From an uncultured Gammaproteobacteria bacterium (GTDB lineage: Bacteria > Pseudomonadota > Gammaproteobacteria > GCA-001735895): 64,000 nucleotides of DNA. Below are positions 18,523 through 35,442 of the stretch, piece by piece. Positions within the stretch are counted from its first letter, which is position 1; the number at the start of each line of letters is the position of its first letter. Location: NCBI GenBank assembly GCA_964488685.1, contig CAZAVY010000004.1, forward strand, positions 158-64,157, written 5' to 3'. The position numbers were made by a program, and so were the translations under genes. The notes under the pieces were generated by a model. It searched no databases, was not told where the DNA came from, and saw only the letters and a program-made list of their open reading frames with translations.

Positions 18523-18918
18523 GTGACAGCGATGGGATTTTTGGTAAATACCTACCGAATGTGCATTCTCAACAACAGTGTATTCGGGTTGGAAGCTATT
18601 GGAGAATTGTTCTACCTACCAGAATTGTTGGCGCAGGGAGGTTGCTTGTCCAATGATCCTGCTATGGTGTATGCTTTCGAAACTGCGACCCAATCGAGCA
18701 TTAAACAAACAACTAAGGATGAACTTTACAGTGTCTTTTTCCCCGAGGTCGAACTGGTGAATCACATCGATGCAGACGCCGATGGCTGGCGACGGGCAGC
18801 GCTGTTTCATCTCGATGCACTTTATGGATTTGCGATGACAGTCACCCGCAATACGCACGATGTGGAAGACCTTGTGCAGGAAACCTACCTTATTACAAGC
18901 CGACGAATCATAATATAG
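18523..18918 (+). pseudogene. ECF sigma factor remnant (only region 2.1 retained)
   Basis: C-terminal part FHLDALYGFAMTVTRNTHDVEDLVQETYL matches the start of ECF sigma region 2 (compare DSLYRTALRMCGDHMNAQDIVQETCLKAY at 47555). It then stops, and regions 2.2-4 are absent. Confidence 0.5.
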
Positions 18919-19798
18919 ATGTCTGACTGCAACAAATTTTGTATCCAGCTAATCCTCTACCTGGACAATGAACTCAAGCAGAGAGAAAAGGCTTTAGTCG
19001 AGGTTCACCTTAAGGAATGTGCCGTCTGTCGCGAAGTATTGGCGCGAGAACGCGGGTTTCAAGAGGGTGTTGCGCATGACTCGCCACTATACACTGCGCC
19101 TGAAAGTCTGCGTACCCGGGTCGCATCGATAATCGCTGCAACGCCGGTAACCCCTCCGGTAAATCCTTTGAGAGCAGCGCGGCGTATTTTGTTTGGCCAC
19201 GATAACCATTACTTCAAATTTATTGCGCAAAATGGTACTGGTAACTGTAACGACTGTTTTGATGCTGGCGATAATATGGGCGGCAATGATTAAACTGAAC
19301 CCCGCACAATCGACAACATTTGCAGCCGTCGCTGTAGATACCCACCAGCGCAACACGCAGGGACGACTGCCACTTGAGTTGCGCTCGGACAGTCCTGAGC
19401 TAATTTCAAGCTGGTTTGAAGGAAAGGTTTCGTTTGATCTTGGACTCCCCGACTACCCCGAGGAACAGGGTCGGAATAAGTTATATCAATTGGAAGGTGC
19501 GAGGTTGATTGTATTCAATAACGACTACTCGGCTTACCTGTCGTACAAGACGGGGGTACGCGATATCAGTCTAATGGTGGCCCCCAGTTCTGTTGCAAAA
19601 CCTAGCGGTGGAGAAAAAATTCCATCGCAGGATCTAATCATTCATTACGACACGATTGATGAACTAAAAGCCATCACCTGGAGCCACCGCGATTTAACCT
19701 ATGCGCTGCTGTCAAATCTGGAAGAACGAGGCCAGCAATCCCGCCTGGTGTGTCACCGGGACAGCAATATTAACCTGGGTGCTAATTTTGATTCCTGA
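18919..19798 (+). pseudogene. zf-HC2 anti-sigma factor, frameshifted
   Basis: The zf-HC2 N-terminus (HLKECAVCREVL) is in frame 18919..19293. The TM segment and periplasmic domain continue in frame 19193..19798, which is paralogous to the intact anti-sigma at 48223. Confidence 0.6.
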
Positions 19799-22351: not shown

Positions 22352-23577
22352 TGATCGGGTTCTGGATCGTCTGCTTTTTAATGTTGGGACTGGCGCTGGT
22401 GTTTTTACTGCCGGCATTTTATCGAACCGGAAATCATGCCGATGTAGACCGTAATTCGCTCAATATCAATATTGCCCGCCAACGCTTGCGAGAGCTTCAG
22501 GCCGACGCCGATGCCGGTTTCATTGCTCAATCAGACCTTGCCATTGCCCGTGAAGAGCTTGAGCGCAACCTGCTTGACGATCTGGACCAGAGTGTTCGTC
22601 CGGGGACTACCCGGTTCAATCCGCTGTGGCCAATTTCAGTGGCTGTTGGACTACCCCTGATAGTCAGCGGTTTATATTTACAGGTTGGTACGCCGCAGGC
22701 GCTGCTTGAACCCGCAACGGCCGTGGTTGAAACCTCGACAGCGACAGCGGTCAATTCCGATAGTCAGCTGGAACCGCTAAAAGCGCGTGTAAATAGGGAT
22801 GACAAAGACGTCGAAGCCTGGCTGTTGCTGGCACAGGCTTATATGGCGATGAAACAATACGGTGATGCTGCCGATACGCTCGAAACCTTGCGAGCCAAAA
22901 ACGGTGACAATCCATTGCGGCTGGCGCGCAATGCCAATGCGCTGGCAATGGCTAACCGTGGTCAGATTCAGGCTAAGTCTCTGGGTCTCGTCGAAGCTGC
23001 ACTGGCATTGGATCCAAATCAGCCTCAGGGGCTATGGCTGGCAGGCATGGCGGCATTCCAGCGAAGCGACTATCAAGCAGCCCTGGATTATTGGCGCCGG
23101 TTGGAACCATTGATGCCGCATCAAGATGAGGATGCGATGGCCGGATTAAAAGAGGTGATCCAGAGAGCGGAATCCGAGCTTGCGAAACCTTCTTCAGGCG
23201 TAGCGGGGCAACCCGCTATTGACGGATCCATGCCGTTGTTAAGAGTGAGTGTTACCCTGGATGAGCGATTTATCGACCAGGCATCTCCAGACGATACCTT
23301 GTTTGTGTATGCGCGCGCAATGCAGGACCCTCAAATCCCCCTCGCTGTGGTACGTAAACGCGTCGAAGATTTACCGCTGACCGTGATTCTGGATGACTCC
23401 ATGGCGATGTTGCCGGAAATGCGATTATCCAATTTTAAAGAGGTCAGGGTCAGTGCGCGGATTTCGAAGTCGGGTGATGCAATACCCCAAAGCGGTGACT
23501 TTTTAGGCGAGGTTGCCCCGGTTCACCCGGCGGATGCGCAGCTTATTCGAGTAATCATTTCAACATTGGTGCCGTAA
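22351..23577 (+). CDS. ccmI: cytochrome c-type biogenesis TPR protein CcmI/CycH (NrfG-like)
   Basis: ATGA overlap with ccmH. Two N-terminal TM segments, then TPR-like repeats (AWLLLAQAYMAMKQYGDAADTLE...). Confidence 0.8.
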   Translation: MIGFWIVCFLMLGLALVFLLPAFYRTGNHADVDRNSLNINIARQRLRELQADADAGFIAQSDLAIAREELERNLLDDLDQSVRPGTTRFNPLWPISVAVGLPLIVSGLYLQVGTPQALLEPATAVVETSTATAVNSDSQLEPLKARVNRDDKDVEAWLLLAQAYMAMKQYGDAADTLETLRAKNGDNPLRLARNANALAMANRGQIQAKSLGLVEAALALDPNQPQGLWLAGMAAFQRSDYQAALDYWRRLEPLMPHQDEDAMAGLKEVIQRAESELAKPSSGVAGQPAIDGSMPLLRVSVTLDERFIDQASPDDTLFVYARAMQDPQIPLAVVRKRVEDLPLTVILDDSMAMLPEMRLSNFKEVRVSARISKSGDAIPQSGDFLGEVAPVHPADAQLIRVIISTLVP

Positions 23578-23619
23578 CGCGAGTGTGAATTCTCGGGTTG
23601 ATACTTGTTTCAATAGTTC

Positions 23620-23680
23620 CGAAAGCATCAGACATCATGTTTTAACTTCCCTGTCGAAAACATGATGTCTGATGCTTTCG
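23620..23680. terminator. perfect 22-bp stem / 17-nt loop hairpin downstream of ccmI (no U-tract)
   Basis: cgaaagcatcagacatcatgtt (23620-23641) pairs perfectly with aacatgatgtctgatgctttcg (23659-23680). Confidence 0.4.
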
Positions 23681-24071
23681 ACAAGAATGGTTCCAGAAAA
23701 AAGCGTTCTATAACAATTCGTTGCAAGTTAAAACATATCAGCCCGTATTTCTCAGTGCGCTCTTCATTACTGCGACGGCACTAAGCCGCACCCTGCCTGC
23801 ATGTCTCCCGGTCAGAGCGCTTAACATAGTGTCAACTATGTCTGCGCACTCTTCGCTCGCCCGCGTTTCACACCACCTTCGCAACGAGTGGGTGTCCGGG
23901 GTAGTGAAAATTTATGGAATAAATTCGGCTGCCATGTATAATGCAGAAATTCCCCGCCTTTAGTGGCGCGGAGGTTTGCAAACGTAGAAATAGGTCGATG
24001 CCTGGCCCTGCGCTAAGCGTAAGCGCGTAAGAATTATAAGCACCAATAACCAAAGATTTTAGAGGTTAAAG

Positions 24072-24782
24072 ATGAAAACTGCGTACTTAACGGTTTGTTC
24101 GCTGGCGGTGTTATTGCTGTCAAGTCCTGTAATGGCGGCTAAATATAAGGAATCCGGTGTCACCGATGGCGGCTCTCTAACGGGCATAATCAGTTACAAA
24201 GGTCGAGTCAAAACAAAAACAGTCTTACCCACCAAGGATAAAAGTGTCTGCGGTGGTCCGCGTAAGCAAAAATTAATTCAAGTCAATGCCGATGGGGCGG
24301 TGAAGAATTCCATCGTCTTCCTCAAAAAAGTTGCTGCCGGCAAGTCCTGGCCAAAATTAACAGAAAAACCCAGTATCACTAATATCGATTGTATATTTGA
24401 ACCGCGTGTACAGGTCGTGCGGCGGGGCAAAATTGATATTTACAATAAGGATCCCGTATTACACAACACCCATGGCTACTACGGAAAGCGCACTGCTTTC
24501 AATGTAGCAATGCCATTGCAGGATTCGAAGGTTAGCAAGTTGTTACGATCTGCTGGTGAAGTGCGCGTCGATTGCGATGCACATGGTTGGATGTTGGGGT
24601 GGATTTATGTGGTAGACAACCCATACTACACCATGACCGGAGATGATGGGAGGTTCTCCATTGCAGATGTACCACCGGGCGACTACACAATGGTAGTTTG
24701 GCAGGAGCAGCTCGGCATCACCGAAGTATCAGTAAATGTGAAGGCGAATGGGTCAACCAGCACAGATATTGAGTTGAAATAA
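24072..24782 (+). CDS. secreted amicyanin-like cupredoxin embedded in a carboxypeptidase-regulatory-like beta sandwich
   Basis: Signal peptide. Putative type-1 Cu ligands LHNTH ... CDAHGWM (H, C-x2-H-x2-M spacing as in amicyanin). Flanked by GSLTGIISYKG and DGRFSIADVPPGDYTMVVW segments. Paralog at 53289. Confidence 0.7.
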   Translation: MKTAYLTVCSLAVLLLSSPVMAAKYKESGVTDGGSLTGIISYKGRVKTKTVLPTKDKSVCGGPRKQKLIQVNADGAVKNSIVFLKKVAAGKSWPKLTEKPSITNIDCIFEPRVQVVRRGKIDIYNKDPVLHNTHGYYGKRTAFNVAMPLQDSKVSKLLRSAGEVRVDCDAHGWMLGWIYVVDNPYYTMTGDDGRFSIADVPPGDYTMVVWQEQLGITEVSVNVKANGSTSTDIELK

Positions 24783-24852
24783 CAATTAGCACATACAGGT
24801 CCAGGCGCCAAATCCGGCGTTAAGATCCAAAATTGACGGAGGATGATTCAAA

Positions 24853-25953
24853 ATGAAAAAAAATGATAAAGAAGAAGATTTGAAAGAAGGTAGGCTAGAT
24901 TTATCACGTCGCACCTTTCTGCATAAATCGATAGTTGCGGGGGCTGCTGTTGCATCAGCGAGCTTATTCGAAACCATAAGTACCATGAATGTAGCAAATG
25001 CGGCCGGGGAGGCATTCAGCTTCGCATGGGTATCTGATACGCATTTATATCCGAAGAAACTGAATACCCGTTTTGTCGAAAAGGCGGCACGTGCGTTTGC
25101 TGAAGTTGAGGCACAAAGTAAAAATCTGGATTTCATGATATTCGGCGGTGATTTGGCGCAGAAGGGTGATCCGGTGGAATTGCGCGAAGGGGCAGAAATG
25201 CTTAATGAGTTAAAGATCAAGCAATATTTTATTCCCGGAGAGCATGACTGGTATCTCGATTTGGGTGAAACCTGGAATAGAAGATTTGGTGAATCGCCCT
25301 GGACATTTGATCACAAGGGCGTGCGTTTTATTGGCCTTAACACCGTCGGCCAGGCGCCTGATTACTGGTCTGCCAAGGGGATGACGGCAAAAGAACGCAT
25401 GGGCCATATGGAGGCACTCGATGGCTCTCAAGCGGGGCCATGGGCCGGATTAGGCAAAAAACAATTAGAGTGGTTGTCTAGTACGATGGCTGGGGTATCA
25501 AAAAAGGCTCCGATTATCATTTTAAGTCACAACCCGTTGTATGAGTACTTCGCGCCCTGGAATTTCTGGGTTCGCGACTGGCGTGAAGTGCATGAAATAA
25601 TTGCTCCCTATTCCAACGTTACCAATATTCATGGACATACCCACCAGGTGTTGTATCACGAAGAGGGCACTACGCGTTTCATCGGTCAGCTTGCAACCTC
25701 ATGGCCATGGCCTTATGCGCCCGAAGGCGTGCCGGCACTTACCAGGCCCATGATTCGAGTCGACCCGGGCGACCCCTTTGATGGCGTTGGCTGGAGCAAG
25801 TTGAGTTCGTCATCGTCCGGGGTTGAACAAGAGTACAAGATGTGGCGAGAGGAAGTGTTCGCGAGCGCAGATGTAGATTCTGGTACGGGTGATAACCGAA
25901 ATCAGAAACTGTCTCCGCGCATAGTTGATCGTGACTGGAACTACCAAAAATAG
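24853..25953 (+). CDS. Tat-exported calcineurin-like metallophosphoesterase
   Basis: Twin-arginine signal SRRTFLHKSIVAGAAVASA. Motifs WVSDTHL, GGDLAQKGD, GEHDW, SHNPL, HGHTHQ. Confidence 0.8.
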   Translation: MKKNDKEEDLKEGRLDLSRRTFLHKSIVAGAAVASASLFETISTMNVANAAGEAFSFAWVSDTHLYPKKLNTRFVEKAARAFAEVEAQSKNLDFMIFGGDLAQKGDPVELREGAEMLNELKIKQYFIPGEHDWYLDLGETWNRRFGESPWTFDHKGVRFIGLNTVGQAPDYWSAKGMTAKERMGHMEALDGSQAGPWAGLGKKQLEWLSSTMAGVSKKAPIIILSHNPLYEYFAPWNFWVRDWREVHEIIAPYSNVTNIHGHTHQVLYHEEGTTRFIGQLATSWPWPYAPEGVPALTRPMIRVDPGDPFDGVGWSKLSSSSSGVEQEYKMWREEVFASADVDSGTGDNRNQKLSPRIVDRDWNYQK

Positions 25954-25959
25954 GAGGAT

Positions 25960-26433
25960 ATGAAAATGAAAAAATTAAATATAAAGCTACACCTGCTAAG
26001 TGGTGCCACCTGCCTGCTATCGCTTCCTTTAATTATCATGCTGGCGACTCAACCCGCGGTAGCACATAAGGAAGCGCATGATTTGGCGACGCTAAAGGCG
26101 TTCGATGATGCCTTTATGGATCAAGTGAAACTGGGAGACAGTCTGTTTCACGGCGACCCTGTTGCGCAAAAGGAAACGGGAGTGAACCTGTCAGATACGG
26201 GAATGGCCTGTGCCATGTGTCATCCTTTCGCTTCGGATATTCATCCACATGAATTTCCAAAATTCCAGGAACAGATGAGCGAATTTGCGACACTTCGTGA
26301 CATGGTAAACTGGTGTATCGAAAAACCTAACGAAGGCCAGGTGATCGATGTCAACAGTGATGCAATGAAGGCTTTAGAGGCCTACATGGTATGGTCGAAT
26401 CGGGGTTCTAAGTTAGATCCGGGTAGACACTAG
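25960..26433 (+). CDS. periplasmic monoheme c-type cytochrome
   Basis: AGGAGG RBS, signal peptide, single CAMCH heme motif. Confidence 0.75.
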   Translation: MKMKKLNIKLHLLSGATCLLSLPLIIMLATQPAVAHKEAHDLATLKAFDDAFMDQVKLGDSLFHGDPVAQKETGVNLSDTGMACAMCHPFASDIHPHEFPKFQEQMSEFATLRDMVNWCIEKPNEGQVIDVNSDAMKALEAYMVWSNRGSKLDPGRH

Positions 26434-26603
26434 TAAAATGCGCAAGTAAGTGTAAATTGCGTGTCCATAGTTGTTTAGTGGCACGTACAGAGTAAGTCGC
26501 AGGTATTGAGTCATCGGGTGGGCGCACGGATTGATAACTGATCCGCGCGTGCCACCCGAACCTTTGTGGAGGCCGGCAGTTAAGCAATCAATTCAGGTAT
26601 TTG

Positions 26604-26628
26604 GGAACTGAATATGCAAAATTTCGTG
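26604..26628 (+). promoter_or_regulatory. candidate ECF-type promoter (GGAAC-N16-CGT)
   Basis: GGAAC at 26604-26608, a 16-nt AT-rich spacer, CGTG at 26625-26628. Lies in the 210-bp gap before the diheme cytochrome gene. The leader to the TTG start would be very short. Confidence 0.25.
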
Positions 26629-26643
26629 TAGGGTTCGATTGTA

Positions 26644-27606
26644 TTGAAAAAACTGATCACTAGAGTTTCACTGGTCGTAATCGCAGGTTTGATCGTAACG
26701 ACGGCCAGTGTCGCGTTGTTGGAAGGAGAAGAATCAACAACCGAGACCAGCTACAAGTCTTTTTTCGATTATCCTGCCAATGTTGAAAATATAGCACCCG
26801 TGGGTCATTCGCCACCGGTTACGCCTCGGTTTATCGAGCACGGGCGGTGGGTATATCGCGGCCTGTGCATCGGCTGCCACGGTGTCAATGGCGATGGTAA
26901 TGGTGCCGTTTGGGAGTTAGCCGATCAATATTCGCCCAAGCACAAATTGCCCCGAAAGCCAAGGGATTTTACCCAGGCTGTGTTCAAGTTGCGCTCAACA
27001 CCGAGCGGTTCGTTTCCAACAGATGCTGATCTATTCAAGTCTTTATCGCGTGGTTTGATAGCAGATTCGGATATGCCGGCTTTCAAATTTCTACCCGAGC
27101 GAGACCGATGGGCCGTAATCGCCTATATCAAAACCTTGTCGGAACGCTGGGTAGAAGAAGAAGAGTATCAGGAAGAGCCGATATTTATTGGTGATCCACC
27201 CGTTCCTGATCTGAATATGATTGCGGAAGGGAAGAAAGTATACGCCTTGATGAAATGCGAGGAATGCCATGGATTACTCGGCAAGGGCGATGGACCCTCG
27301 GCATCGGACTTGGAAGACGATGATGGCCTTGCGATACTGCCGCGTGATTTTGGCGATGCCAGTCAGTTTGTCGGAGCAAGTGACCCGCGCGGCGTCTTCC
27401 AGACATTTAACACCGGGCTGGATGGCACGCCAATGCCCTCCTTTTCAGATTTTCTCGATGCAGAGCAAAGCTGGCAGCTGGTATGGTATGTAACCTCGCT
27501 AAGATCTGAATGGAGCCTGGAAGCAACCCGCGAAGCAATGCTGCAACAGCGAGATCAACCCACCAATAGCGGTGTAGATGTTAATTCATCTGCTACAACC
27601 GATTAG
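26644..27606 (+). CDS. periplasmic diheme c-type cytochrome
   Basis: Two heme motifs, CIGCHGVNGDGNG and CEECHGLLGKGDG. FKLRSTPSGSFPTDADLF segment. Paralog at 52393. TTG start. Confidence 0.8.
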   Translation: MKKLITRVSLVVIAGLIVTTASVALLEGEESTTETSYKSFFDYPANVENIAPVGHSPPVTPRFIEHGRWVYRGLCIGCHGVNGDGNGAVWELADQYSPKHKLPRKPRDFTQAVFKLRSTPSGSFPTDADLFKSLSRGLIADSDMPAFKFLPERDRWAVIAYIKTLSERWVEEEEYQEEPIFIGDPPVPDLNMIAEGKKVYALMKCEECHGLLGKGDGPSASDLEDDDGLAILPRDFGDASQFVGASDPRGVFQTFNTGLDGTPMPSFSDFLDAEQSWQLVWYVTSLRSEWSLEATREAMLQQRDQPTNSGVDVNSSATTD

Positions 27607-27607
27607 T

Positions 27608-28078
27608 ATGCTTGCGAGGCAGTCCCGTATGACAATGGCCATTGTTTTATCCGGTATAGCATTCGCGGGTATGTGTGCCTGGATGGTGAACAAGCTCCTG
27701 CCGGTGCGTGACACGACCGTGGCTGCGATGGATATCGCCTCACCGATTAACTATCAAAAGCTTGGACAGGGCTCTAACCTAGCCAATCTTGAAAGAGGGC
27801 GTAGTTACTATGCTCAGCTTTGCATGTCCTGCCACGGCGGCAGCGGAGATGGGAATGGTGAATGGGCCTATCGAGTGACACCCCGACCTGCAGACCTGAG
27901 AAGCCCGCGTGCCAGGGGTCGTAGCGATGAACAGTTGTTCAGCATAATTAGCGAGGGACTGCCCGGTACTTCTATGGTGGGAATGAAAGCTAAGCTTTCT
28001 ACAACCCAGCGCTGGCAAATTGTAGAATATTTACGTCATCTGATGTTTGGTGAGGAGCAACTCACAGCCAATGACTAG
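27608..28078 (+). CDS. membrane-anchored monoheme c-type cytochrome
   Basis: TM anchor MTMAIVLSGIAFAGMCAWMV; CMSCHGGSGDGNG; Met-ligand region LPGTSMVGM. Start uncertain (27578, 27608 or 27629). Confidence 0.75.
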   Translation: MLARQSRMTMAIVLSGIAFAGMCAWMVNKLLPVRDTTVAAMDIASPINYQKLGQGSNLANLERGRSYYAQLCMSCHGGSGDGNGEWAYRVTPRPADLRSPRARGRSDEQLFSIISEGLPGTSMVGMKAKLSTTQRWQIVEYLRHLMFGEEQLTAND

Positions 28079-28655
28079 TGTCAGCAAAATAGCTCAACTT
28101 CCCAATGCGGTTTCTGAAACACGCCAGAAAATTGTAGCAAGTCAACCACGCGTGATAGTTTACCTGCTGTTAATGTCGGTCATTAATTTTCTTATCGGCA
28201 CCATTCAAGGTGTTCTGCAAACCTTTCCCGGGATAGCCCAGTGGATACGGGAAGCCGGACCGGCGGGGCACTTGATCGACCCGCTGGCACACGCGCACAT
28301 TAATCTCGTCGGTGGCGTGACTATGGGTATGATGGGGTTGTTTTATTTCGTATTACCTCAGCTGGTTCAACGGCCAATGTATAGCCCGCTTTTAGCAAGC
28401 GTCTCATTCTGGTTTTCCGCCATTGGTGTGATCAGTTTTTTCAGTTCGCTGGTTATACTAGGCATCATCGAAGGCCGTTTAGTTCATGGTGGGATGACCT
28501 ACGCTCAGGCGCTTGAAACTGTCGGTCCGATACATCATATCCTGATAGTGACTGCGGCCTTCATTATGGGATTCGGATACTGGGCATTTATCAGCAATAT
28601 ATTGCTGACTATTTTCAAGAAACGAACGGGAGAAGAACATGCATCGCCTGCTTAA
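28071..28655 (+). CDS. stand-alone homolog of the C-terminal five TM helices of CcoN (heme-copper oxidase subunit I)
   Basis: Aligns by eye to aa 310-465 of the 471-aa CcoN-like protein: IQGVLQTFPGIAQWI/IQGAFQQTRALNWYI, LAHAHINLVGG/VAHAHLALLGF, FYFVLPQLVQRPMYS/IYYGLPKLLKRELYS. ATG 28071 overlaps the upstream stop. Confidence 0.7.
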   Translation: MTSVSKIAQLPNAVSETRQKIVASQPRVIVYLLLMSVINFLIGTIQGVLQTFPGIAQWIREAGPAGHLIDPLAHAHINLVGGVTMGMMGLFYFVLPQLVQRPMYSPLLASVSFWFSAIGVISFFSSLVILGIIEGRLVHGGMTYAQALETVGPIHHILIVTAAFIMGFGYWAFISNILLTIFKKRTGEEHASPA

Positions 28656-28857
28656 TTTTCTTTACAGCGGTTTTATGGTTGGAATCGGGCTTGGAACCGT
28701 ATTTCAGTTGGCATTGTTACCGCTTTTTGGCATGCGTAGCCATGACGAGTGGACTGGATTGCTGGTTTGGGGTTTTGCAATCAGCATCGGCACCGGTGTT
28801 GTCTCGGCGATAAGTTTCTGGGTGATGAATACAATTATGGTTCGCCAGGGTAAGTAG
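28639..28857 (+). CDS. small two-TM membrane protein
   Basis: 72 aa with two hydrophobic helices. Overlaps the upstream gene by 17 nt and is co-directional with the oxidase cluster. Confidence 0.45.
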   Translation: MHRLLNFLYSGFMVGIGLGTVFQLALLPLFGMRSHDEWTGLLVWGFAISIGTGVVSAISFWVMNTIMVRQGK

Positions 28858-28897
28858 GCCCAGTCTGACCTAAGCAAAAAACGGGTAATATAATATA

Positions 28898-30313
28898 GTG
28901 AAATTCTTTAAGCAAAATGACTATTCCGAAGGAACAGCAGCCAAGCATTTCTTCTTTTCGTCTATTGTCATGCTGAATATAGGAGTGTTCCTGGCACTGG
29001 GAACCTCGTTGCGTCTAGCCTGGCCGGATATCATGCCCAACGATATCCCCTGGCTGCACTTCGGTCGAATTCGGCCGGTACATGTACATTTTGTAATATT
29101 CGGCTGGATTTCGATGGCCTTTGCCGGGGCCATGTGTTACATGACCCCGGCCTTGTGCAAATCAAAGCTATGGAGCGAAAAATTAGGCGTCTGGAATTGC
29201 TGGGCCTGGAATCTGGGAATGGTGGCCATTTTTTTCACGCTGATAAATGGATTGACTACCGGACGTGAATATCAGGATTTGATTTGGCCCGTCGATGTCT
29301 ATGTTCTAATGTTTATTTTTATCCCGTTGGCGGTCAACATCTGGATGACGATGTTAACCCGCCGGGTAAAAGGATTGTATGTCACTCTGTGGTTTTTCGG
29401 TGCTGCACTACTGTTTATAATTCTGAGTTACTTCATTGGTGCAATACCCGATTTTTTCCCGGTTACCGGGTTGAGTGAAGCCTATATGACCTGGTGGCAT
29501 GCGCACAATATTCTGGGACTCTGGATCACACCTGTGTCTGCGGCTATTGCCTATTACATCATTCCAAAAGTGTCGGGTAATACGCTTTATAGCCACAAGA
29601 TTGGACATTTACATTTTTGGTCGATCGCGGCTTTCTACTCCACTCCCGGCGCTCATCACCTGATGGGTGCTCCTATTCCCGAATGGCTGAAATCATTTGC
29701 ATCTGTTTCGGGCGTGCTGATTATGATTCCGGCACTGGCTTTTGTGGTCAACATGCTAATGACGATGAAGGACAAGTGGTGGATGTATACCAAGAGTATA
29801 CCGCTACAGTGGGCGCTAACCGGGGTCTTGTTTGCCATTCCACTCAATATTCAGGGTGCTTTCCAGCAGACTAGAGCCCTCAACTGGTATATTCATGGAA
29901 CACACTGGATAGTGGCGCACGCCCATTTGGCCTTGTTGGGATTCTCTACATTTATAGAAATCGGGGCTATTTATTATGGATTGCCAAAATTGCTGAAACG
30001 CGAACTCTACAGCATCAAACTGGCGCAAATCCACTTCTGGATGATGGCAATCGGGTTCCTTGGATTTTGGGCGGTATTAACGGCGGCCGGCCTGGTTCAG
30101 GGTGCGGCAAAGGTATACGAAATTCCTTACCTACAATCGGTTATCGCCATGCATCCATACATGGTTGGACGTGTCCTTTTTGGTTCGATGATCATCGTTG
30201 CCCAGCCAATATTTCTTTACAATATGATAATGACCGCTAAATACGGCAAAAAGTTAACGCCTGATACACCCAGCGATCAAGAGCCCGTTATGGCGGCCTC
30301 GGCAACAACCTGA
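28898..30313 (+). CDS. ccoN: C-family heme-copper oxidase subunit I (CcoN-like)
   Basis: FGRIRPVHVHFVIFGW (heme b His), TWWHAHNILG (CuB His), FYSTPGAHH (Tyr-x5-HH, the C-type cross-link spacing), HWIVAHAHLALLGF (heme b3 and heme b His). GTG start. Confidence 0.9.
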   Translation: MKFFKQNDYSEGTAAKHFFFSSIVMLNIGVFLALGTSLRLAWPDIMPNDIPWLHFGRIRPVHVHFVIFGWISMAFAGAMCYMTPALCKSKLWSEKLGVWNCWAWNLGMVAIFFTLINGLTTGREYQDLIWPVDVYVLMFIFIPLAVNIWMTMLTRRVKGLYVTLWFFGAALLFIILSYFIGAIPDFFPVTGLSEAYMTWWHAHNILGLWITPVSAAIAYYIIPKVSGNTLYSHKIGHLHFWSIAAFYSTPGAHHLMGAPIPEWLKSFASVSGVLIMIPALAFVVNMLMTMKDKWWMYTKSIPLQWALTGVLFAIPLNIQGAFQQTRALNWYIHGTHWIVAHAHLALLGFSTFIEIGAIYYGLPKLLKRELYSIKLAQIHFWMMAIGFLGFWAVLTAAGLVQGAAKVYEIPYLQSVIAMHPYMVGRVLFGSMIIVAQPIFLYNMIMTAKYGKKLTPDTPSDQEPVMAASATT

Positions 30314-30339
30314 TTTATTAACACACGGGGATAGCAGCA

Positions 30340-30861
30340 ATGCCGAAATATGTAATTGGAACCATTCTCGTCGTATTGACAATTTTCACCTCGATAGCGA
30401 TTACTATTGTGGCGGGATCCACCTATATGGCCCAAATTCCGCCGACCGAACTTGCCAAGGAAAAAGAGAAGATCTGGGGGCATACGGGATGGTCTATCAA
30501 GGACCCCTGGATGACAGGTGATCTCGCACCGACGTTGGCGGGGAAAGGTAAAACAATATTTATCCGTGAAGGTTGTTGGTGGTGTCACACCTTGCTTCCC
30601 GAACAGACTCAGGATTGGGCATATTTCGGCGAACCGCCATTAGCGGGCGATGTACAGCTCGAATCACCAAGCCTGTTCGGGTCGGATCGTAAGGCGCCGG
30701 ATTTGCTACACATTGCGAGCCGTAATCGAGTCAAGGCATGGCATTACGTGCATCATCGTAACCCACGTGCGGTAACGCCTGGATCGATCATGCCGGCCTT
30801 TGTGTATTTAAGCGATGAAGACCTCGATGCTATCGTTGCATTTCTGGAAAGTCTTGAATAA
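30340..30861 (+). CDS. ccoO: monoheme cytochrome c subunit (CcoO-like)
   Basis: N-terminal TM anchor, EGCWWCHT heme motif, GSDRKAPDL and PGSIMPAF segments as in FixO/CcoO. Confidence 0.85.
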   Translation: MPKYVIGTILVVLTIFTSIAITIVAGSTYMAQIPPTELAKEKEKIWGHTGWSIKDPWMTGDLAPTLAGKGKTIFIREGCWWCHTLLPEQTQDWAYFGEPPLAGDVQLESPSLFGSDRKAPDLLHIASRNRVKAWHYVHHRNPRAVTPGSIMPAFVYLSDEDLDAIVAFLESLE

Positions 30862-30897
30862 AATTTTGATTGCGCGTTACCGGGAGTACTATCCAAT

Positions 30898-31299
30898 ATG
30901 AATGATGACAACAATATGGACGAACTTGAAGACAAAGGCACTTGTTTCGGGCGGTATTCAGAAGACGACTACGACGGAATAATCGAGGGGAATGGAAAGA
31001 TTCCATGGTGGTTGATACTAATTGTGGCGGTGACGGTATTTGAGGCTTTTTTATTTACCATGCCATGGCCGGGTTTCGGGCAGCGTTATGACAGCGTAAC
31101 CACAACATTCGTCAGTGCAAACGGAAAACAGCCGTGGTGGGACTACGGTTATTATATTATATCGGGGCAAATTATTGTTGTCCTGTCAGGAATAGCTGCG
31201 GTGGTCTGGACTATCAACGTGCAAGAATGGAAAAAAAAGGAGCTGGCCGAAAAGCAGGGTACAGGCGGAGATACTACCAAATCTAGTGATGCTGAATAG
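30898..31299 (+). CDS. CcoP/FixP N-terminal-anchor-like membrane protein without heme domain
   Basis: DYDGIIEGNGKIPWWLILIVAVTVFEAFLF resembles the FixP_N signature (DGI-x-E-x-N-x-x-P-x-WW plus TM). No CxxCH in its 133 aa. Confidence 0.6.
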   Translation: MNDDNNMDELEDKGTCFGRYSEDDYDGIIEGNGKIPWWLILIVAVTVFEAFLFTMPWPGFGQRYDSVTTTFVSANGKQPWWDYGYYIISGQIIVVLSGIAAVVWTINVQEWKKKELAEKQGTGGDTTKSSDAE

Positions 31300-31304
31300 T
31301 TTAG

Positions 31305-31511
31305 GTGGAATTTACCGACAAGATTTCGGTACTAATATTTGCGTTAGTCCTGATGTCAGCGGTAATTTACGTAATAATGTCCGGTTACGTAATTGGTCCG
31401 CTAAAGAATTTAAAATCAGTTGAGCGGGTAATACTGATTGTCAGCGTGATAGGAATAGTGATGGTGGTGGTATATGCCGCTGCAGAGCTCTTGTTTTTCG
31501 TTGTATTTTAG
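31305..31511 (+). CDS. small two-TM membrane protein
   Basis: 68 aa, two hydrophobic helices, GTG start 6 nt after the previous stop. Confidence 0.4.
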   Translation: MEFTDKISVLIFALVLMSAVIYVIMSGYVIGPLKNLKSVERVILIVSVIGIVMVVVYAAAELLFFVVF

Positions 31512-31548
31512 TTGATTCTGTCGACAATCGATGATTTGGGTGCGCTGA

Positions 31549-31977
31549 TTGAAACTCGGTGAAAAGCTTATGTTCGGTTTCTCTATATTGTTGGTCGTAG
31601 TGGCGGTCGGTAGAGGTGTAAAACAAATGAACGAGGAACCCCGAAAGGCAAGAGACTTCTATGAATGGACCGAACTTGCTTTAAAGGGGCACACGCTATA
31701 TCGCAGCATGGGTTGCAATAGCTGTCATCGAGCGATGGGGGTAGGCGAAGTTGGTGTCGGCCCGGTATTGGATGGTGAAGGAACAAAAAGATCAAAGCGT
31801 TGGATTAACGACTATCTGCTCGATCCCTCAAGTCAGGTGCCAGGCACTGCACATGATGGCAGTCTGGGACCGGATTTTCGAACGTTGGCGCAGGATCAGC
31901 GGCAGTTGCTGGGCGCTTTTTTATCGGCCTTAAAATCTAACCCCGGATCGCCTAATTATCCACGCCCGCCTTCATAA
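31549..31977 (+). CDS. membrane-anchored monoheme c-type cytochrome
   Basis: TM anchor MFGFSILLVVVAVG; single GCNSCH motif. TTG 31549 or ATG 31570 start. Confidence 0.75.
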   Translation: MKLGEKLMFGFSILLVVVAVGRGVKQMNEEPRKARDFYEWTELALKGHTLYRSMGCNSCHRAMGVGEVGVGPVLDGEGTKRSKRWINDYLLDPSSQVPGTAHDGSLGPDFRTLAQDQRQLLGAFLSALKSNPGSPNYPRPPS

Positions 31978-32010
31978 AATCGGGATACAATTTTTAACTT
32001 TAGGAGCAAT

Positions 32011-32175
32011 ATGATGTCAGGCGATGTGCTCATTCCCTATATTTGGGCTGCCACTGGTTTGGTGAGTTTGATAGCGATAGTGCTGATGATTTTCTGGGCC
32101 AGTAAACATGGTCAGTTCGATGAAGATATCAAGGATCAAATGTTTACCGCTGGAGACGATGACCGATTTGAGTGA
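32011..32175 (+). CDS. ccoS: cbb3-type oxidase maturation protein CcoS/FixS (54 aa, below the ORF-track cutoff)
   Basis: Hand translation: MMSGDVLIPYIWAATGLVSLIAIVLMIFWASKHGQFDEDIKDQMFTAGDDDRFE. It has the CcoS pattern: one TM segment, W-A-x-K-x-GQFDD/E, and a C-terminal DDD. Confidence 0.7.
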   Translation: MMSGDVLIPYIWAATGLVSLIAIVLMIFWASKHGQFDEDIKDQMFTAGDDDRFE

Positions 32176-32620
32176 CGACCCTGATTCCAAGTCATCGATT
32201 CGTGTTGGAGAATGGATTGTAATAATTGGTTCTGTACTGGTGGTGACATTGGCCGTGGTTATGGGCACAATTATCTATCAAAAACCGCCACCCGTGGTTC
32301 GTACTTATATTGAGTCAGCAGCAAGTATTGAAGGTGAATTAATTTTTCGAAGAGAAAACTGTTTTTCGTGCCACGAAGTATTCAGTAATGGAGCCAGTTA
32401 CGGTCCGAGCCTGGATGGCGTGGGAAGCAAACGTACCGGTGACTGGCTGCAAGCCTATATGCGAAATCCAAGACCGGGTGTTAGTGTTAAACCGTATCGA
32501 TTACGAATGCCATCTTACCAATATCTGGGAGAGGAAAAGATTGATGTATTGGTCAGTTATCTGCAGGGACTACGAACCCTGGACGAAAACGGTAATCTGG
32601 TCAGCCCTGCAGAAGAATAA
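32159..32620 (+). CDS. membrane-anchored monoheme c-type cytochrome
   Basis: Internal ATG 32159 of ORF 32108..32620 overlaps the end of ccoS. TM anchor WIVIIGSVLVVTLAVVMGTII; single NCFSCH motif; RMPSY Met-ligand region. Confidence 0.75.
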   Translation: MTDLSDDPDSKSSIRVGEWIVIIGSVLVVTLAVVMGTIIYQKPPPVVRTYIESAASIEGELIFRRENCFSCHEVFSNGASYGPSLDGVGSKRTGDWLQAYMRNPRPGVSVKPYRLRMPSYQYLGEEKIDVLVSYLQGLRTLDENGNLVSPAEE

Positions 32621-32655
32621 ATAGCCTGTGATTCTTAATGCTGTTACTGTGACAT

Positions 32656-32802
32656 TTACCCCTTTTTAATATAGGATTCGTACTCTTGATCTTTGAACAA
32701 ACCCGTACCAATGCAAGCCCAAGGAACGATAGCCAGTGCGACGCAGGCACCCAGTCCAAATATACCTAATGCAATCTTAACGCCAAGTGAGAGTTCTTCC
32801 AC
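32656..32802 (-). CDS. possible 48-aa one/two-TM peptide
   Basis: Hand translation of the minus strand from GTG 32802: VEELSLGVKIALGIFGLGACVALAIVPWACIGTGLFKDQEYESYIKKG. It fills an otherwise empty 226-bp gap. Weak support. Confidence 0.25.
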   Translation of the reverse strand: MEELSLGVKIALGIFGLGACVALAIVPWACIGTGLFKDQEYESYIKKG

Positions 32803-32846
32803 CGTATTTCCCCAGTTGTTTAATTACGAATTATGAGGTGTAAAAA

Positions 32847-33386
32847 ATGAGTTTAACGGTTTCCAAGTTTATGTCAATACAACGGCTAAAGGCTCCAGTA
32901 ATCTTATTATTCGCTACTTTTTTATTAGTTTCATGTAGCGATACAACTGGCAGTTTTAAGCCCAAACTCGGCGTCGGTGATGTCGCGCCAAAAAGCAATA
33001 ACCGTGTCGTGGCGGATGCGGACCAATGGTATCAGGTATCCACCATGGACAGTAAAGTGCCATTGTATCGTTGGAGAATTGCCGATTTGATTGAACAAAA
33101 TAAACCATTTTTGGTAGTTTTCGGTACGCCGCAACACTGTACCATGTGCGTCGATCAAATTGTGCGAGTGGCGGTAATGGAAGAACAATACGGCGAGCAG
33201 TTCGCCTTTGTCCATATCGACGGTTACAAGGACAATGAGGTCTGGGTAGAATGGGGCGTCAAGGGCGAGCCCTGGACTTTTATCGTCAATGCCAGGGGAA
33301 TAATACAAAACGTTTTCCCGGGTCAAACCGAGTTGGCTCTACTGAAAAACGAAATGCAACAGCTAGTTGAATTGTCGGATTCATAA
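32847..33386 (+). CDS. thioredoxin-fold lipoprotein (TlpA/redoxin-like)
   Basis: Lipobox LLVSC; FLVVFGTPQHCTMCVDQIVRV with a CxxC. Confidence 0.6.
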   Translation: MSLTVSKFMSIQRLKAPVILLFATFLLVSCSDTTGSFKPKLGVGDVAPKSNNRVVADADQWYQVSTMDSKVPLYRWRIADLIEQNKPFLVVFGTPQHCTMCVDQIVRVAVMEEQYGEQFAFVHIDGYKDNEVWVEWGVKGEPWTFIVNARGIIQNVFPGQTELALLKNEMQQLVELSDS

Positions 33387-33613
33387 TGTCTCGCTGCGTC
33401 ATCAAATTCCTGTTTCCGTGCCTGGTCATGATGATTAGCACTGTTGTGTGGGCCGGAGGCAATCCCTACACTTATGTAAAGATGTCTCTGCTGGTTCCCT
33501 GGACCTTATATTTCGTATTTCTTGCAGCCATACTAATTCCATTTGTCATCCTGATTGTGCTCTCCTGGCAGCGTCAGCCGGGTGATGATAATTCGAGTGA
33601 TAAGAACCACTAG
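33386..33613 (+). CDS. small membrane protein
   Basis: 75 aa, two hydrophobic segments, TAATG overlap with the upstream gene. Confidence 0.4.
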   Translation: MSRCVIKFLFPCLVMMISTVVWAGGNPYTYVKMSLLVPWTLYFVFLAAILIPFVILIVLSWQRQPGDDNSSDKNH

Positions 33614-33615
33614 CA

Positions 33616-33759
33616 ATGGATCGTTTTTTACGCATTGGTTTGCCGATTGTACTGATCCTGGTTTTGGGGGTGGTCGCTGTTTTTGTTTATAATGCCCTCG
33701 AGGCGACCGATTTGATGGAAACGGAACGGCGCGCCGGACCGACATTGTTAAGTCATTAA
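33616..33759 (+). CDS. possible 47-aa single-TM peptide
   Basis: Hand translation: MDRFLRIGLPIVLILVLGVVAVFVYNALEATDLMETERRAGPTLLSH. Starts 2 nt after the previous stop. Confidence 0.3.
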   Translation: MDRFLRIGLPIVLILVLGVVAVFVYNALEATDLMETERRAGPTLLSH

Positions 33760-34230
33760 TGCATCCCGAGATGTCTCATTGAAGGAGTACTGAGGACGGA
33801 AGTTAGTTTAATGCCTGCCGGGGTTACAACGAAAAGGTTGCGGCTGCGTCCAGTTGAATTCTATGGCCCTTTTCACCTTCCCCAGCCCGCCAAATGTGGA
33901 TCGAATAACGGCCCGGGGGAAGATTGTCGAAGTGTACCGTACCCGGTTCCCACAATAATTCATAGTGATGATTGGCCGGAGAATATATCTATGCCTGCAT
34001 CGATGGATGGAGTTCGCAGCGCACGCTGAAAATACCGCTGCGATTTAATTTATTGCGAATTGATTTACCCGAATCAGGTGCTGTAATCGTTGATATAGGA
34101 GTTCGATAAGCATGGTATACAAACTTCATTGTAAGCCTTACCCGTCGCGCCTGTCACCCGGTAAAGTGACCTATCAATTATGGCTGACGTAAATCGAGTA
34201 GAATTGATTTTTTAAGCAAGAGATTCTGGT

Positions 34231-35442
34231 GTGATACTGCGACAGCAACTGGTCGGCATAATTTTATCGGTATGCATTTCAAGCGCAGTTTATCTACCCG
34301 TTGCTTTTGCTAGTGCGAAACCAGGGCCTTTAATGCTCGTTGGTGCCGTATTACGGCACAATCAATCAGATATATGGAAGCGCATATATCAGTTAGCGGG
34401 TGGTAATCTCGCTGATTTCGTTGTAGTCGCGAGCGCTAGTCCCCGGCCCAGGTTGTATGGTGGGTTTGCAGTTCGAGGTTTACAGCGTTACGGAGGTTTT
34501 GTCGATCTGTTGCCATTGGCGACACAGCTGGACCAATTTGATATCGATTATCGAGAGGCCGTCGTTGACGCAGAAATCATCGATAAAACCCGTCGATCAA
34601 ATGCGGTGTTTTTTGTCGGCGGTGCCCCGCAGCGCCTTGCAAGCGTACTTTTTAATGCGGATGGCTCCAACACCCCTCTGGCATCGGCAATTCAGGAGAT
34701 GCATGCCAGGGGTGGAGTGATCATCGGTGGCATTCCGGCTATGGCAGGTGTTGCCACCAACACCAACCCGATGACAGCACTGGAGCAGGGACGTATCGCA
34801 GAAAAGGATTTATTTCCCGGCCTTAATTTGCTGGCAAATGACTGGTATCTGGATCAACATTTTTTTAGCGGAGGGCGTTTCGCACAAAGTATAATTGCAA
34901 TGCGCCAGCTTAATAAAACTTTCGGTCTCGGAATAGGAGTAAACACGGCCGCTGCTATCGATGCGGAACAACTCGAAGTTATCGGCGAACAAGGGGTCGT
35001 GCTAATTGATCTGTCCCTCGCAACATCGGCCACCGGCATCAATGGATTTACCCTCAAAGGTGCTCGCTTAAGTTATCTTGACCATGGTGATAGACTTGAT
35101 ATGGTTTCAAGGCAGATTACTCCCCACACTTACAAACTGGAAGAGTTCGTAATCGAACCGGGCGCTAATGGCTTTCGCCAGCCGGACGAAGAACAATACA
35201 CTGTCGGAAATATGTTCTCCCCTGGCAGCTTGTTAGACTTAATGATTACTTCGATAGAAGGAAAGCATAAACAGGTTGCAGGTTTGGCGATGAAAGAAAG
35301 CAGGGGCAATCAGGAAAGTGGCGGCTATTTGTTTAAATTTTATACCGGGCCGGACAGCATTGGATGGTTGACCACGCTATTTGGAGGTCAGCGTTGGACA
35401 ATTCTGAACATATACCTCGACATCGTCCCGCTTGAAAAATAA
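34231..35442 (+). CDS. secreted cyanophycinase-like (peptidase S51 / class I GATase-like) protein, catalytic Ser apparently missing
   Basis: Signal peptide. VFFVGGAPQRLASVLF and GGVIIGGIPAMAGV parallel the S51 motifs GGNQxRL and G-T-S-A-G-A, but with Pro at the Ser position. GTG start. Confidence 0.45.
   Translation: MILRQQLVGIILSVCISSAVYLPVAFASAKPGPLMLVGAVLRHNQSDIWKRIYQLAGGNLADFVVVASASPRPRLYGGFAVRGLQRYGGFVDLLPLATQLDQFDIDYREAVVDAEIIDKTRRSNAVFFVGGAPQRLASVLFNADGSNTPLASAIQEMHARGGVIIGGIPAMAGVATNTNPMTALEQGRIAEKDLFPGLNLLANDWYLDQHFFSGGRFAQSIIAMRQLNKTFGLGIGVNTAAAIDAEQLEVIGEQGVVLIDLSLATSATGINGFTLKGARLSYLDHGDRLDMVSRQITPHTYKLEEFVIEPGANGFRQPDEEQYTVGNMFSPGSLLDLMITSIEGKHKQVAGLAMKESRGNQESGGYLFKFYTGPDSIGWLTTLFGGQRWTILNIYLDIVPLEK

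Follow-up and report, generated by a model that had tools for sequence, protein, structure and literature searches.

What kind of terminal oxidase is encoded where CcoN- and CcoO-like subunits share one run of genes with a blue-copper protein, a metallohydrolase, a series of cytochromes c and several small membrane peptides? The question is raised by a 64,000-nucleotide stretch of DNA from an uncultured gammaproteobacterium (contig CAZAVY010000004.1, positions 158 to 64,157), the whole of which is called the window below. Its oxidase block, at window positions 24072-33759, consists of 17 plus-strand open reading frames (ORFs), here named g01 to g17, which overlap or are separated by short gaps; a small minus-strand gene (sp48, 32656-32802) brings the total to 18 conserved genes. 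A first-pass annotation had described the block as a non-canonical C-family locus, and that description is largely borne out. On balance, with little more than even confidence, we read it as the locus of a CcoP-less oxygen reductase from a divergent C-family clade, equipped with its own electron-delivery and maturation genes and dedicated to lithotrophy through exchangeable periplasmic donor modules.

The catalytic subunit and its place in the C family

The CcoN-like subunit I is encoded by g08 (28898-30313, 471 amino acids (aa)). It carried the full COX1 domain (271.9 bits) in the Pfam and NCBIfam profile scans of the window ORFs, read at curated cut-offs, on which all domain calls given here are based. 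It aligned end to end with CcoN of Pseudomonas stutzeri (3mk7_A, E 5.9e-63), and its matches to NorB were far weaker (2e-15 and 6e-8). Residues H62, H203, H253, H254, H341 and H343 correspond to P. stutzeri H60, H207, H257, H258, H345 and H347, and the segment Y247-STPGA-H253-H254 places its tyrosine on P. stutzeri Y251, so that the six ligand histidines and the Tyr-x5-His-His spacing reported by the first-pass annotation were recovered on the known ligands. These six histidines (two for haem b, one for haem b3 and three for CuB), the cross-link tyrosine and the Ca-site glutamate are invariant in 14 clade members. Nitric-oxide reductases of the cNOR/qNOR type have no active-site tyrosine and carry an additional glutamate ligand at their FeB site; in g08, by contrast, Tyr247 is present and invariant. 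Judged by its ligands, its tyrosine and the adjacent CcoO, g08 would belong to the C-family haem-copper oxygen reductases in the broad sense, and we infer that O2 is its substrate.

Comparison with known sequences placed g08 well away from ordinary cbb3 oxidases. Against the ccoN equivalog TIGR00780 it scored 234.6 bits where the cut-off is 583, which is under half of the canonical level. A search of 1.84 billion 50%-identity representatives returned only two full-length clusters close to g08, one at 91% identity and one at 57% identity and 594 bits, after which the next match fell to 340 bits and 41%. Canonical representatives, labelled via a P. stutzeri CcoN sequence rebuilt from a printed alignment, were 26-33% identical to g08. 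In a neighbour-joining tree of 87 full-length sequences with 60 bootstraps, g08 grouped with a Nitrospirae metagenome-assembled genome (MAG), an alphaproteobacterial MAG and homologues from Zetaproteobacteria and Gammaproteobacteria, the group having a long stem and lying far from canonical sequences. This clade was monophyletic in 60/60 bootstraps. On the trimmed alignment its members share 56-83% identity with one another; the closest sequences outside it reach no more than 40%, and those of the canonical core 22-29%. The phylogeny therefore agrees with the proposal that this subunit I falls outside ordinary cbb3 oxidases.

Genome matches identified clade members in Gallionellaceae, Sideroxydans, Mariprofundus, Nitrospirota, Leptospirillia and one Bacillota MAG, and the clade is dominated by iron oxidisers; g08 is 55-64% identical to the homologues from Mariprofundus, Gallionellaceae, Nitrospirota and Leptospirillia. 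A single cluster at 90% identity gathers 798 subunit I sequences. This abundant clade has no characterised member and belongs, ecologically, to lithotrophs. All solved or purified C-family oxidases belong, to our knowledge, to the single canonical clade, and we know of no enzyme of the present kind that has been purified or characterised. Papers on iron oxidisers divide cbb3 into a "proximal" and a "distal" form with different sets of subunits (PMC8788666, PMC7029218, PMC10734462), and in Sideroxydans ES-1 both forms are highly expressed, with the "distal" form up on thiosulfate (PMC8788666). From such secondary uses of the label, we infer that the g08 clade may be the "distal" cbb3 of Ducluzeau 2008.

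Several residues distinguish g08 from the canonical enzyme. P. stutzeri E323 is replaced by Q319, glutamine being the majority state among non-canonical C-family representatives; Y317 is replaced by A313, and S240 by glycine, both changes extending across the whole clade. K293 and E354 of g08 are clade-specific invariants. In P. stutzeri, E323 is presumably hydrogen-bonded to the proximal histidine of haem b3, and Y317 and S240 presumably line the single proton-input channel; a literature search on the roles of E323, Y317 and CcoP E49 gave no confirmation.

Separately, many of the 50%-identity CcoN-related representatives lack at least one metal-ligand histidine or the active-site tyrosine, each ligand being kept in only 36-41 of 60 "other" C-family representatives. 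This loss suggests that degenerate or repurposed CcoN paralogues are numerous.

A conserved gene block and its predicted subunits

Conservation of the block was examined in one-genome-per-species contigs, among which 435 stretches encode a CcoN relative. Eighty loci were kept and searched by tblastn with all 17 proteins. A CcoN of at least 80% identity was present in 44 of the 80, and 37 of these 44 also carry g02 and g03. All 17 genes are collinear on one strand in 29 loci, the remainder being cut by contig ends. The arrangement is far beyond chance, since the same order recurs in 29 species-level genomes, and the accessory genes listed by the first-pass annotation are syntenic in relatives. 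The carriers are labelled Arenicellales (most of them), Granulosicoccaceae, Gammaproteobacteria, and Burkholderiales, Comamonadaceae or betaproteobacterial MAGs. The block is also borne by three complete MAG chromosomes, OZ241870, OY282353 and OZ244045. Because the flanking genes (ccmF/H/I and a cyanophycinase-like gene) swap side and orientation among loci while g01 to g17 stay collinear, the conserved unit is g01 to g17. Median identities fell from 88% for CcoN through 81% for CcoO and g07 to 68% for g10; those of the other proteins were 68% (g02), 67% (g03), 66% (g04), 62% (g11), 59% (g06 and g01), 58% (g12), 54% (g14) and 43% (g05).

Judged from conservation and homology, the core enzyme would consist of g08, with its haem b, haem b3-CuB centre and cross-linked tyrosine, together with g09, g07, g10 and probably g11; g06, g12 and g14 may also belong to it. 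The CcoO-like protein that had been noted behind CcoN is g09 (30340-30861, 173 aa), a short, anchored monohaem subunit II with a FixO score of 75.5 bits (cut-off 29.6). Its alignment with the CcoO chains in five solved cbb3 structures spans CcoO residues 52-150, covering the CxxCH and IMP Met region, and g09 is without the canonical C-terminal ~50 residues. Directly 5' of CcoN in all loci lies g07 (28639-28857, 72 aa), a two-transmembrane (two-TM) peptide with no family match in the profile scans. Over 37 species it is constrained as strongly as CcoO, which argues for core-subunit status and makes it a probable core structural subunit. A second two-TM peptide, g11 (31305-31511, 68 aa), also has no family match and is conserved in position and sequence.

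The heme-less CcoP-anchor protein of the first-pass annotation corresponds to g10 (30898-31299, 133 aa). It has two TM helices and no CxxCH, and its FixP_N score of 24.7 bits falls just below the cut-off of 24.9. The alignment to P. stutzeri CcoP 43-81 (DGIxE...PxWW) is weak (E 0.48) and sets g10 E30 at CcoP E49, presumably the glutamate that opens the proton-input channel. The anchor motif is invariant in 46 orthologues. In the proposed enzyme, g10 would supply only the membrane anchor of CcoP with its glutamate, and the CcoP haem domains would be functionally replaced by separately anchored cytochromes, namely g12, g14, the dihaem g04 and the monohaem g05.

Of these, g12 (31549-31977, 142 aa; FixO 29.5 bits, CNSCH) and g14 (32108-32620, 170 aa; Cytochrom_C 45.1 bits, FixO 30.9 bits, CFSCH) had been listed as two further anchored monohaem cytochromes and can be refined to CcoO paralogues. 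They are related to each other at E 2.5e-16; g14 is related to g09 at E 2e-10, and g12 is also related to g09. The locus thus encodes three CcoO-type anchored monohaems. The true start of g14 probably lies downstream, near 32159, and homologues of g12 also occur in loci of the iron-oxidiser type. The dihaem cytochrome c g04 (26644-27606, 320 aa), N-terminally anchored or secreted and a probable electron-entry subunit, contains two Cytochrom_C/Cytochrome_CBB3 domains, and in L123-type non-canonical oxidases a dihaem of its type (40-50% identity) is fused to CcoO. It gave the best window match to the CcoP model TIGR00782, at 35.9 bits with a cut-off of 180. We rejected the view of g04 as split CcoP haem domains, its best match in the Protein Data Bank (PDB) being an unrelated, uncharacterised dihaem protein (6h5l_B, 7e-46). 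The membrane-anchored monohaem cytochrome c g05 (27578-28078, 166 aa; CMSCH, one TM helix), which precedes g06, is related to the g04 domains (E 1e-11) and is the least conserved member of the block. The count of seven CxxCH motifs in six genes was exact. As for the reported absence of a dihaem ccoP, the fused protein is indeed missing, but its anchor motif is kept in g10 and dihaems of the g04 family are fused to CcoO elsewhere. Electrons would pass from the anchored cytochromes to the CcoO haem c, on to haem b and finally to b3-CuB, where O2 would be reduced.

The stand-alone CcoN C-terminal paralogue is g06 (28047-28655, 202 aa), hereafter mini-CcoN, whose start is probably at 28071, giving 194 aa. 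It covers only COX1 profile positions 306-420 and aligned to P. stutzeri CcoN 307-446 with the H-A-H equivalent to H345/H347 kept; its four TM helices are equivalent to CcoN helices IX-XII. Its homologues form a family of stand-alone proteins of 185-200 aa (256 matches) in which H67, H74-A-H76 and H155 are invariant, and within the g08 clade the mini-CcoN is always paired with an anchored cytochrome. An AlphaFold2 model (predicted local distance difference test, pLDDT, 72) consists of four long helices, and its top Foldseek matches are CcoN chains (E 0.04-0.08). This protein may serve as an additional membrane subunit that binds metal or haem, or as a scaffold on which cofactors are inserted. 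A few mini-CcoN homologues (P0392, P0457 and P0481) carry, besides COX1, a precomputed match to Pfam PF04143 (Sulf_transp, YeeE/YedE sulfur transport), which may be spurious.

Maturation would be served by g13 and by the separately transcribed g15-g17. The embedded ccoS is g13 (32011-32175, 54 aa), a single-TM peptide resembling the CcoS assembly factor; its FixS score of 20.6 bits lies below the cut-off of 23.1, an acidic tail of CcoS type (QFDE...GDDDR) is kept in 44 orthologues, and homologues also occur in Mariprofundus and Gallionella loci. The thioredoxin lipoprotein, g15 (32847-33386, 179 aa), has weak Thioredoxin_2, Thioredoxin and DsbE matches, a lipobox (LVSC) and a CTMC motif within an invariant HCTMCVDQ; it is a probable periplasmic thiol-disulfide or copper-handling maturation factor. 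A two-TM peptide with no family match (g16, 33386-33613, 75 aa) is conserved in 31 loci, and a single-TM peptide (g17, 33616-33759, 47 aa), the final conserved gene of the block, in 30; past g17, the flanks differ in both gene content and orientation.

The co-directional run described earlier stands for the 17 plus-strand ORFs but is interrupted by sp48 (48 aa), a conserved single-TM peptide with a VPWxCIGTGL motif that the first-pass annotation had not placed. Its position on the opposite strand between g14 and g15 means that the block comprises at least two transcription units. Of the 40 or more loci with a homologue, nearly all of those with 17 genes encode it on the minus strand; in locus L021 and in variant loci with a Cyc2-like gene (discussed below) it lies on the plus strand, so that a small gene appears to have been inverted inside an otherwise fixed order. 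A promoter and terminator scan of 23400-34400 gave counts equal to the shuffled expectation, and operon boundaries are therefore not readable from that scan. An Rfam scan of 23000-35000 gave no match at E 0.1 or better.

Compared with the canonical cbb3 locus, ccoNOQP followed by ccoGHIS (P. stutzeri 3mk7/5djq; Rhodobacter capsulatus 6xkw), the window likewise encodes a twelve-helix subunit I with six histidines, Tyr-x5-HH and the Ca-site glutamate, a monohaem partner of CcoO type, the motif of the N-terminal CcoP anchor and a peptide resembling CcoS. It differs in the distance and the substitutions of g08 given above, in a CcoO that is ~50 residues shorter, and in having neither a fused dihaem CcoP nor CcoG, CcoH and CcoI: as the first-pass annotation had it, no Fer4_5/CcoG, FixH or P-type ATPase domain was found in the window ORFs tested. 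Additional to the canonical set are the mini-CcoN, three anchored monohaems, one dihaem, five to six small membrane peptides, the cupredoxin g01 and the g02/g03 pair.

The statement that no characterised oxidase has this inventory holds in so far as none has been characterised, but the kind has already been glimpsed in Candidatus Tenderia and in iron oxidisers. The "cbb3-1/cbb3-2" region of Ca. Tenderia electrophaga lists a "truncated CcoN" and a "thioredoxin", is conserved in freshwater iron oxidisers and was called by its authors "a sort of alternative complex IV" (10.1101/2022.05.06.490989). The corresponding loci of a gammaproteobacterial MAG (L006) and of Mariprofundus ferrooxydans (L004) carry a monohaem c, a COX1 fragment (170 aa) and a thioredoxin, then CcoN, a long CcoO and small proteins, and at the downstream end a monohaem c and FGE-sulfatase-like, spermine-synthase-like and CcoG-like genes. 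The CcoN of this type belongs to the same clade as that of the window (55-60% identity), and both locus types share a truncated CcoN after an anchored monohaem c, a thioredoxin, CcoO-type monohaems and a CcoS-like peptide. They differ in that the CcoO of the Tenderia and iron-oxidiser type is long (296-316 aa, against 173 aa in the window), in that the FGE-sulfatase-like, spermine-synthase-like and CcoG-like genes occur in the iron-oxidiser type only and are absent from the window and all 17-gene loci, and in gene order, the window thioredoxin not standing next to the mini-CcoN. The iron-oxidiser type lacks g01-g05, g07, g10, g11, g16 and g17 at detectable similarity, whereas the window adds the trio g01-g03 and a recognisable CcoP anchor. 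Our literature search found no description of the 17-gene architecture or of its first three genes.

An exchangeable front end

The block opens with three genes that stand apart from the oxidase proper. The first, g01 (24072-24782, 236 aa), encodes a secreted protein with an amicyanin-fold domain followed by a C-terminal CarboxypepD_reg/immunoglobulin-like (Ig-like) domain, a probable periplasmic electron carrier. Pfam detected only the C-terminal CarboxypepD_reg/fn3_3 domain and missed the cupredoxin, and a sequence-only PDB search likewise found only the Ig-like domain, so that recognition of the cupredoxin needed a structure model. In the AlphaFold2 model (pLDDT 89.7), a cupredoxin and an Ig-like domain were evident, with amicyanin as the top Foldseek PDB match (E 5.8e-6, template-modelling score 0.69), in agreement with the amicyanin-like protein of the first-pass annotation. 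The ligand set H131, C168-x2-H171-x2-M174 is invariant in 74 of 74 homologues. By modelled fold and ligand loop, g01 would be a type-1 blue-copper cupredoxin, and copper binding is predicted.

The second gene, g02 (24853-25953, 366 aa), encodes the expected metallophosphoesterase (Pfam Metallophos, 52.7 bits) of dinuclear metallohydrolase fold, exported by the twin-arginine translocation (Tat) pathway through its SRRTFL motif. Its DTH, GGD, GEHD (instead of GNHD/E) and HGHTH motifs are conserved in 39 orthologues. It sits between g01 and g03 in all 37 genome loci and in about 74 metagenome loci. The third, g03 (25960-26433, 157 aa), had been noted as a monohaem cytochrome and can be narrowed to a secreted protein of the SoxA/TsdA type (Pfam SoxA-TsdA_cyt-c, 34.6 bits, cut-off 27). 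It aligned with the catalytic haem-1 domain of the thiosulfate dehydrogenase TsdA (4wq7), the cysteine of its NWC motif falling on TsdA Cys96, the sixth haem ligand there, with the numbering counted from the printed alignment. The cysteine and the CxxCH are kept in 73 of 73 homologues.

A metagenome scan seeded with g02 returned at least 394 relatives, and 80 loci were kept. The trio occurs together and in the same order wherever the contig allows. Only four of these loci are of the window type; in most, the trio is followed directly by another type of non-canonical CcoN, together with a CcoO that is fused to a dihaem. The CcoN of one such locus (L123) is 31% identical to that of the window, 26% to that of P. 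stutzeri and 52% to the representative P0147. In about 34 of the 80, a gene resembling a SoxY-SoxZ fusion stands between g03 and ccoN (Pfam SoxY 56.6 and SoxZ 55.9 bits; TIGR04557 103 bits, cut-off 140; GAGGC motif in the linker), and L123 has a Sulf_transp gene downstream of its trio-oxidase locus and an anti-sigma gene upstream. Three features suggest that a reduced sulfur compound is oxidised by the trio: g03 conserves a cysteine at the TsdA ligand position, g02 has its fold class and export route in common with SoxB, and a SoxYZ-like gene is often found next door. In such a Sox/TsdA-like scheme, g03 would provide the oxidising haem, g02 a SoxB-like hydrolase, and g01 the acceptor that feeds the oxidase. 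Set against the known systems, g03 shares the SoxA/TsdA haem domain and the axial-ligand cysteine but consists of one domain only, SoxX and a second haem being absent, and g02, like SoxB a Tat-exported hydrolase of dinuclear metallophosphoesterase fold, is without the 5'-nucleotidase C-terminal domain. The full Sox set was not found at the window: g03 stays below the SoxA cut-off, g02 has no SoxB match and SoxYZ is missing. The trio is widespread in soil and sediment metagenomes (L088-L167, e.g. L123:6799-15904). Matches of the L123 SoxYZ-like ORF (residues 1-75) in window-type loci, obtained by tblastn, were discarded as out-of-frame artefacts over g03.

In other loci, part of the trio is exchanged. 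Six close loci without g02 and g03, among them L001 (3051-5429), L045, L046 and L047, encode, immediately 5' of g01, a protein of 511 aa and a dihaem c of 276 aa. The larger protein combines a signal peptide and one CNVCH near residue 47 with an extended beta-rich region and a phenylalanine as its last residue; there being no NCBIfam or Pfam model for Cyc2, the designation "Cyc2-like" is one of architecture. The trio takes the place of the Cyc2-like/dihaem pair in 37 loci, none of which carries both, a modular exchange that the loci themselves show. The replacement of g02-g03 by a Cyc2-like porin-cytochrome and a dihaem c in sister loci implies an Fe(II) donor there. The front end would accordingly be described as a swappable donor module, consisting of g01 alone or of g01 with g02-g03. 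A similar logic is seen in the Acidithiobacillus ferrooxidans rus operon, cyc2-cyc1-orf-coxBACD-rus (PMC10654088), where a donor oxidase, a dihaem c, a blue-copper carrier and a terminal haem-copper oxidase are combined in one operon. The Cyc2-type sister loci match the front of the rus operon gene for gene. The rus oxidase, however, is an A-family aa3 enzyme whereas that of the window is C-family, and the window cupredoxin is amicyanin-like with an Ig-like domain, not a rusticyanin, and comes without Cyc2.

A second lithotrophy module of the window (47555-58308, + strand) bears on the role of g01. It opens with genes for an extracytoplasmic function (ECF) sigma factor and a zf-HC2 anti-sigma factor, followed by the small (49133-49702) and large (49753-52377) subunits of arsenite oxidase, both above their NCBIfam cut-offs; the enzyme scored 473 bits on TIGR02693 (cut-off 359) and 130 bits on TIGR02694 (cut-off 96). 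A dihaem cytochrome c (52393-53139) and a cupredoxin paralogous to g01 (53289-54026), 38% identical to it and with the copper ligands retained, come next, all on the plus strand, and modABC-like transporter genes and MoaA come after the paralogue. The position of this paralogue behind bona fide aioBA and a dihaem c supports an electron-carrier role for g01-type cupredoxins.

Several findings weigh against the reading that we prefer. The model of g06 is of only moderate confidence and its fold matches are weak; the family matches of g10 and g13 fall just under curated cut-offs; g02 resembles class-III phosphodiesterases (CpdA/GpdQ-like) rather than SoxB and matched no sulfur-enzyme family; g03 reached 31.3 bits on the SoxA equivalog TIGR04484, whose cut-off is 110; and no SoxYZ-like carrier was found in the window or the 17-gene loci, about half of the other trio loci also being without one. 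With the changes of Y317 to alanine and S240 to glycine, moreover, proton pumping may differ or be absent.

Some of these findings also bear on another function for the trio, namely a maturation or protection system for C-family oxidases, handling copper or haem or removing inhibitory sulfide or persulfide. The biogenesis of cbb3 oxidases requires dedicated periplasmic copper and thiol factors, the trio is linked to oxidase genes in two oxidase clades and to no lithotrophy gene set, and window-type loci lack the carrier protein. We nevertheless consider this unlikely, given that g01 bears a complete type-1 electron-transfer copper site and not a chaperone motif, that its paralogue stands behind arsenite oxidase as a likely acceptor, that exchange with a Cyc2-like outer-membrane cytochrome favours a donor role, and that sulfur chemistry at the level of the substrate is indicated by the SoxYZ-like and Sulf_transp genes.

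The portability of the trio argues against a broader assembly in which all 17-18 products form one membrane super-enzyme. This would combine seven c-haems and a blue copper with a further module derived from CcoN, making a self-contained "alternative complex IV". Such an assembly would be in keeping with the strict collinearity in 29 species, with the membrane anchoring of most products and with the proposal made for the sister region by the Tenderiales authors (10.1101/2022.05.06.490989). Since the trio also pairs with an unrelated oxidase clade and g15-g17 lie cut off behind an opposite-strand gene, however, the inventory that the first-pass annotation had treated as that of one oxidase is improbable as a single enzyme. 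The replacement of g02/g03 in sister loci, the soluble periplasmic nature of g01, g02 and g03, and the steep fall in identity from 81-88% in the core to 43-58% in the peripheral cytochromes likewise speak against it, and we hold a super-enzyme to be distinctly unlikely.

The electron donor itself could differ from the sulfur compound considered above: the locus might serve Fe(II) oxidation here too, as in Zetaproteobacteria, Gallionellaceae and Leptospirillia, with the outer-membrane oxidase encoded elsewhere. The many iron oxidisers in the CcoN clade and the Cyc2-like gene directly upstream in the nearest variant loci fit this view; yet the 64-kb window contains no Cyc2-like ORF, the Cyc2-like/dihaem pair is absent from all 37 loci in which the trio takes its place, and the window arsenite oxidase with the same carrier type suggests a broader lithotrophic use, which makes an Fe(II) role in this organism very improbable. 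Least credible of all is a reductase of nitric oxide (NO) or another N-oxide, or a dual O2/NO reductase. C-family enzymes are the closest relatives of cNOR/qNOR and can turn over NO in vitro (PMC11214002), the Mariprofundus homologue has a multicopper NirK-like gene as its neighbour, and Glu323 and one proton-channel tyrosine are lost here. Against this, the active-site tyrosine and three CuB histidines that define oxygen reductases are invariant in the clade, NorB is matched far more weakly than CcoN, glutamine at 323 is the usual non-canonical state, and the iron-oxidising relatives are obligate microaerophiles relying on such oxidases (PMC3770913, PMC7029218).

Genomic setting and biological meaning

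Upstream of the block lie ccmF, ccmH and ccmI, followed by a perfect inverted repeat at 23620-23680 (24-nt arms, 13-nt loop, no T-run after it) that lies 43 nt past the ccmI stop codon; it may be a transcript-end hairpin, or one resembling repetitive extragenic palindromes (REP), that divides the ccm genes from the oxidase block. Just 5' of ccmF (18523-19293, + strand), a short ORF with sigma-70 region 2 is accompanied by one for a zf-HC2 anti-sigma factor. The aio cluster of the window and the trio in L123 are likewise preceded by anti-sigma genes, a recurrence that hints at ECF-sigma control of respiratory modules. Downstream, a cyanophycinase-like S51 peptidase gene (34231-35442, + strand; TIGR02069 92 bits, cut-off 127) adjoins the oxidase block in many species, its side and orientation changing.

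The CcoN sequences of MAGs labelled Arenicellales or Gammaproteobacteria are 87-91% identical, over the best aligned segment, to those of MAGs labelled Burkholderiales or Comamonadaceae (L008-L050), and the G+C content of the locus, 0.46-0.50, is slightly under that of much of the window (~0.50-0.55 in many 2-kb bins). This high identity across labels and the lower G+C are consistent with lateral transfer of the whole block.

A coupling of the trio to an oxidase appears to be undescribed. More tentatively, and with considerable doubt, we entertain two novelties jointly: that the trio is an undescribed, widespread "mini-Sox-like" periplasmic oxidation module hard-wired to non-canonical C-family oxidases, and that the oxidase is a structurally new complex IV. 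If so, trio and oxidase would form a direct substrate-to-oxygen respiratory unit bypassing the quinone pool and bc1, in which a stand-alone four-helix CcoN fragment that conserves histidines, three CcoO-type cytochromes and a haem-less CcoP anchor replace CcoP and CcoQ, and protons take an altered path.

The lowest oxygen level that still permits aerobic life is set by C-family oxidases. The present locus defines a second, abundant architecture within this family, and species-representative genomes hold 435 relatives; it occurs in marine Arenicellales and in other gammaproteobacterial and Burkholderiales MAGs, and is sister to the oxidases on which iron oxidisers depend. It offers a handle on electron delivery to CcoP-less C-family enzymes, on the role of truncated CcoN genes, and on how lithotrophic donors (the sulfur-type trio, Cyc2, and arsenite oxidase with the same cupredoxin) are wired to a terminal oxidase. 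The portable trio could, in addition, mark an unrecognised oxidation pathway in soils and sediments.

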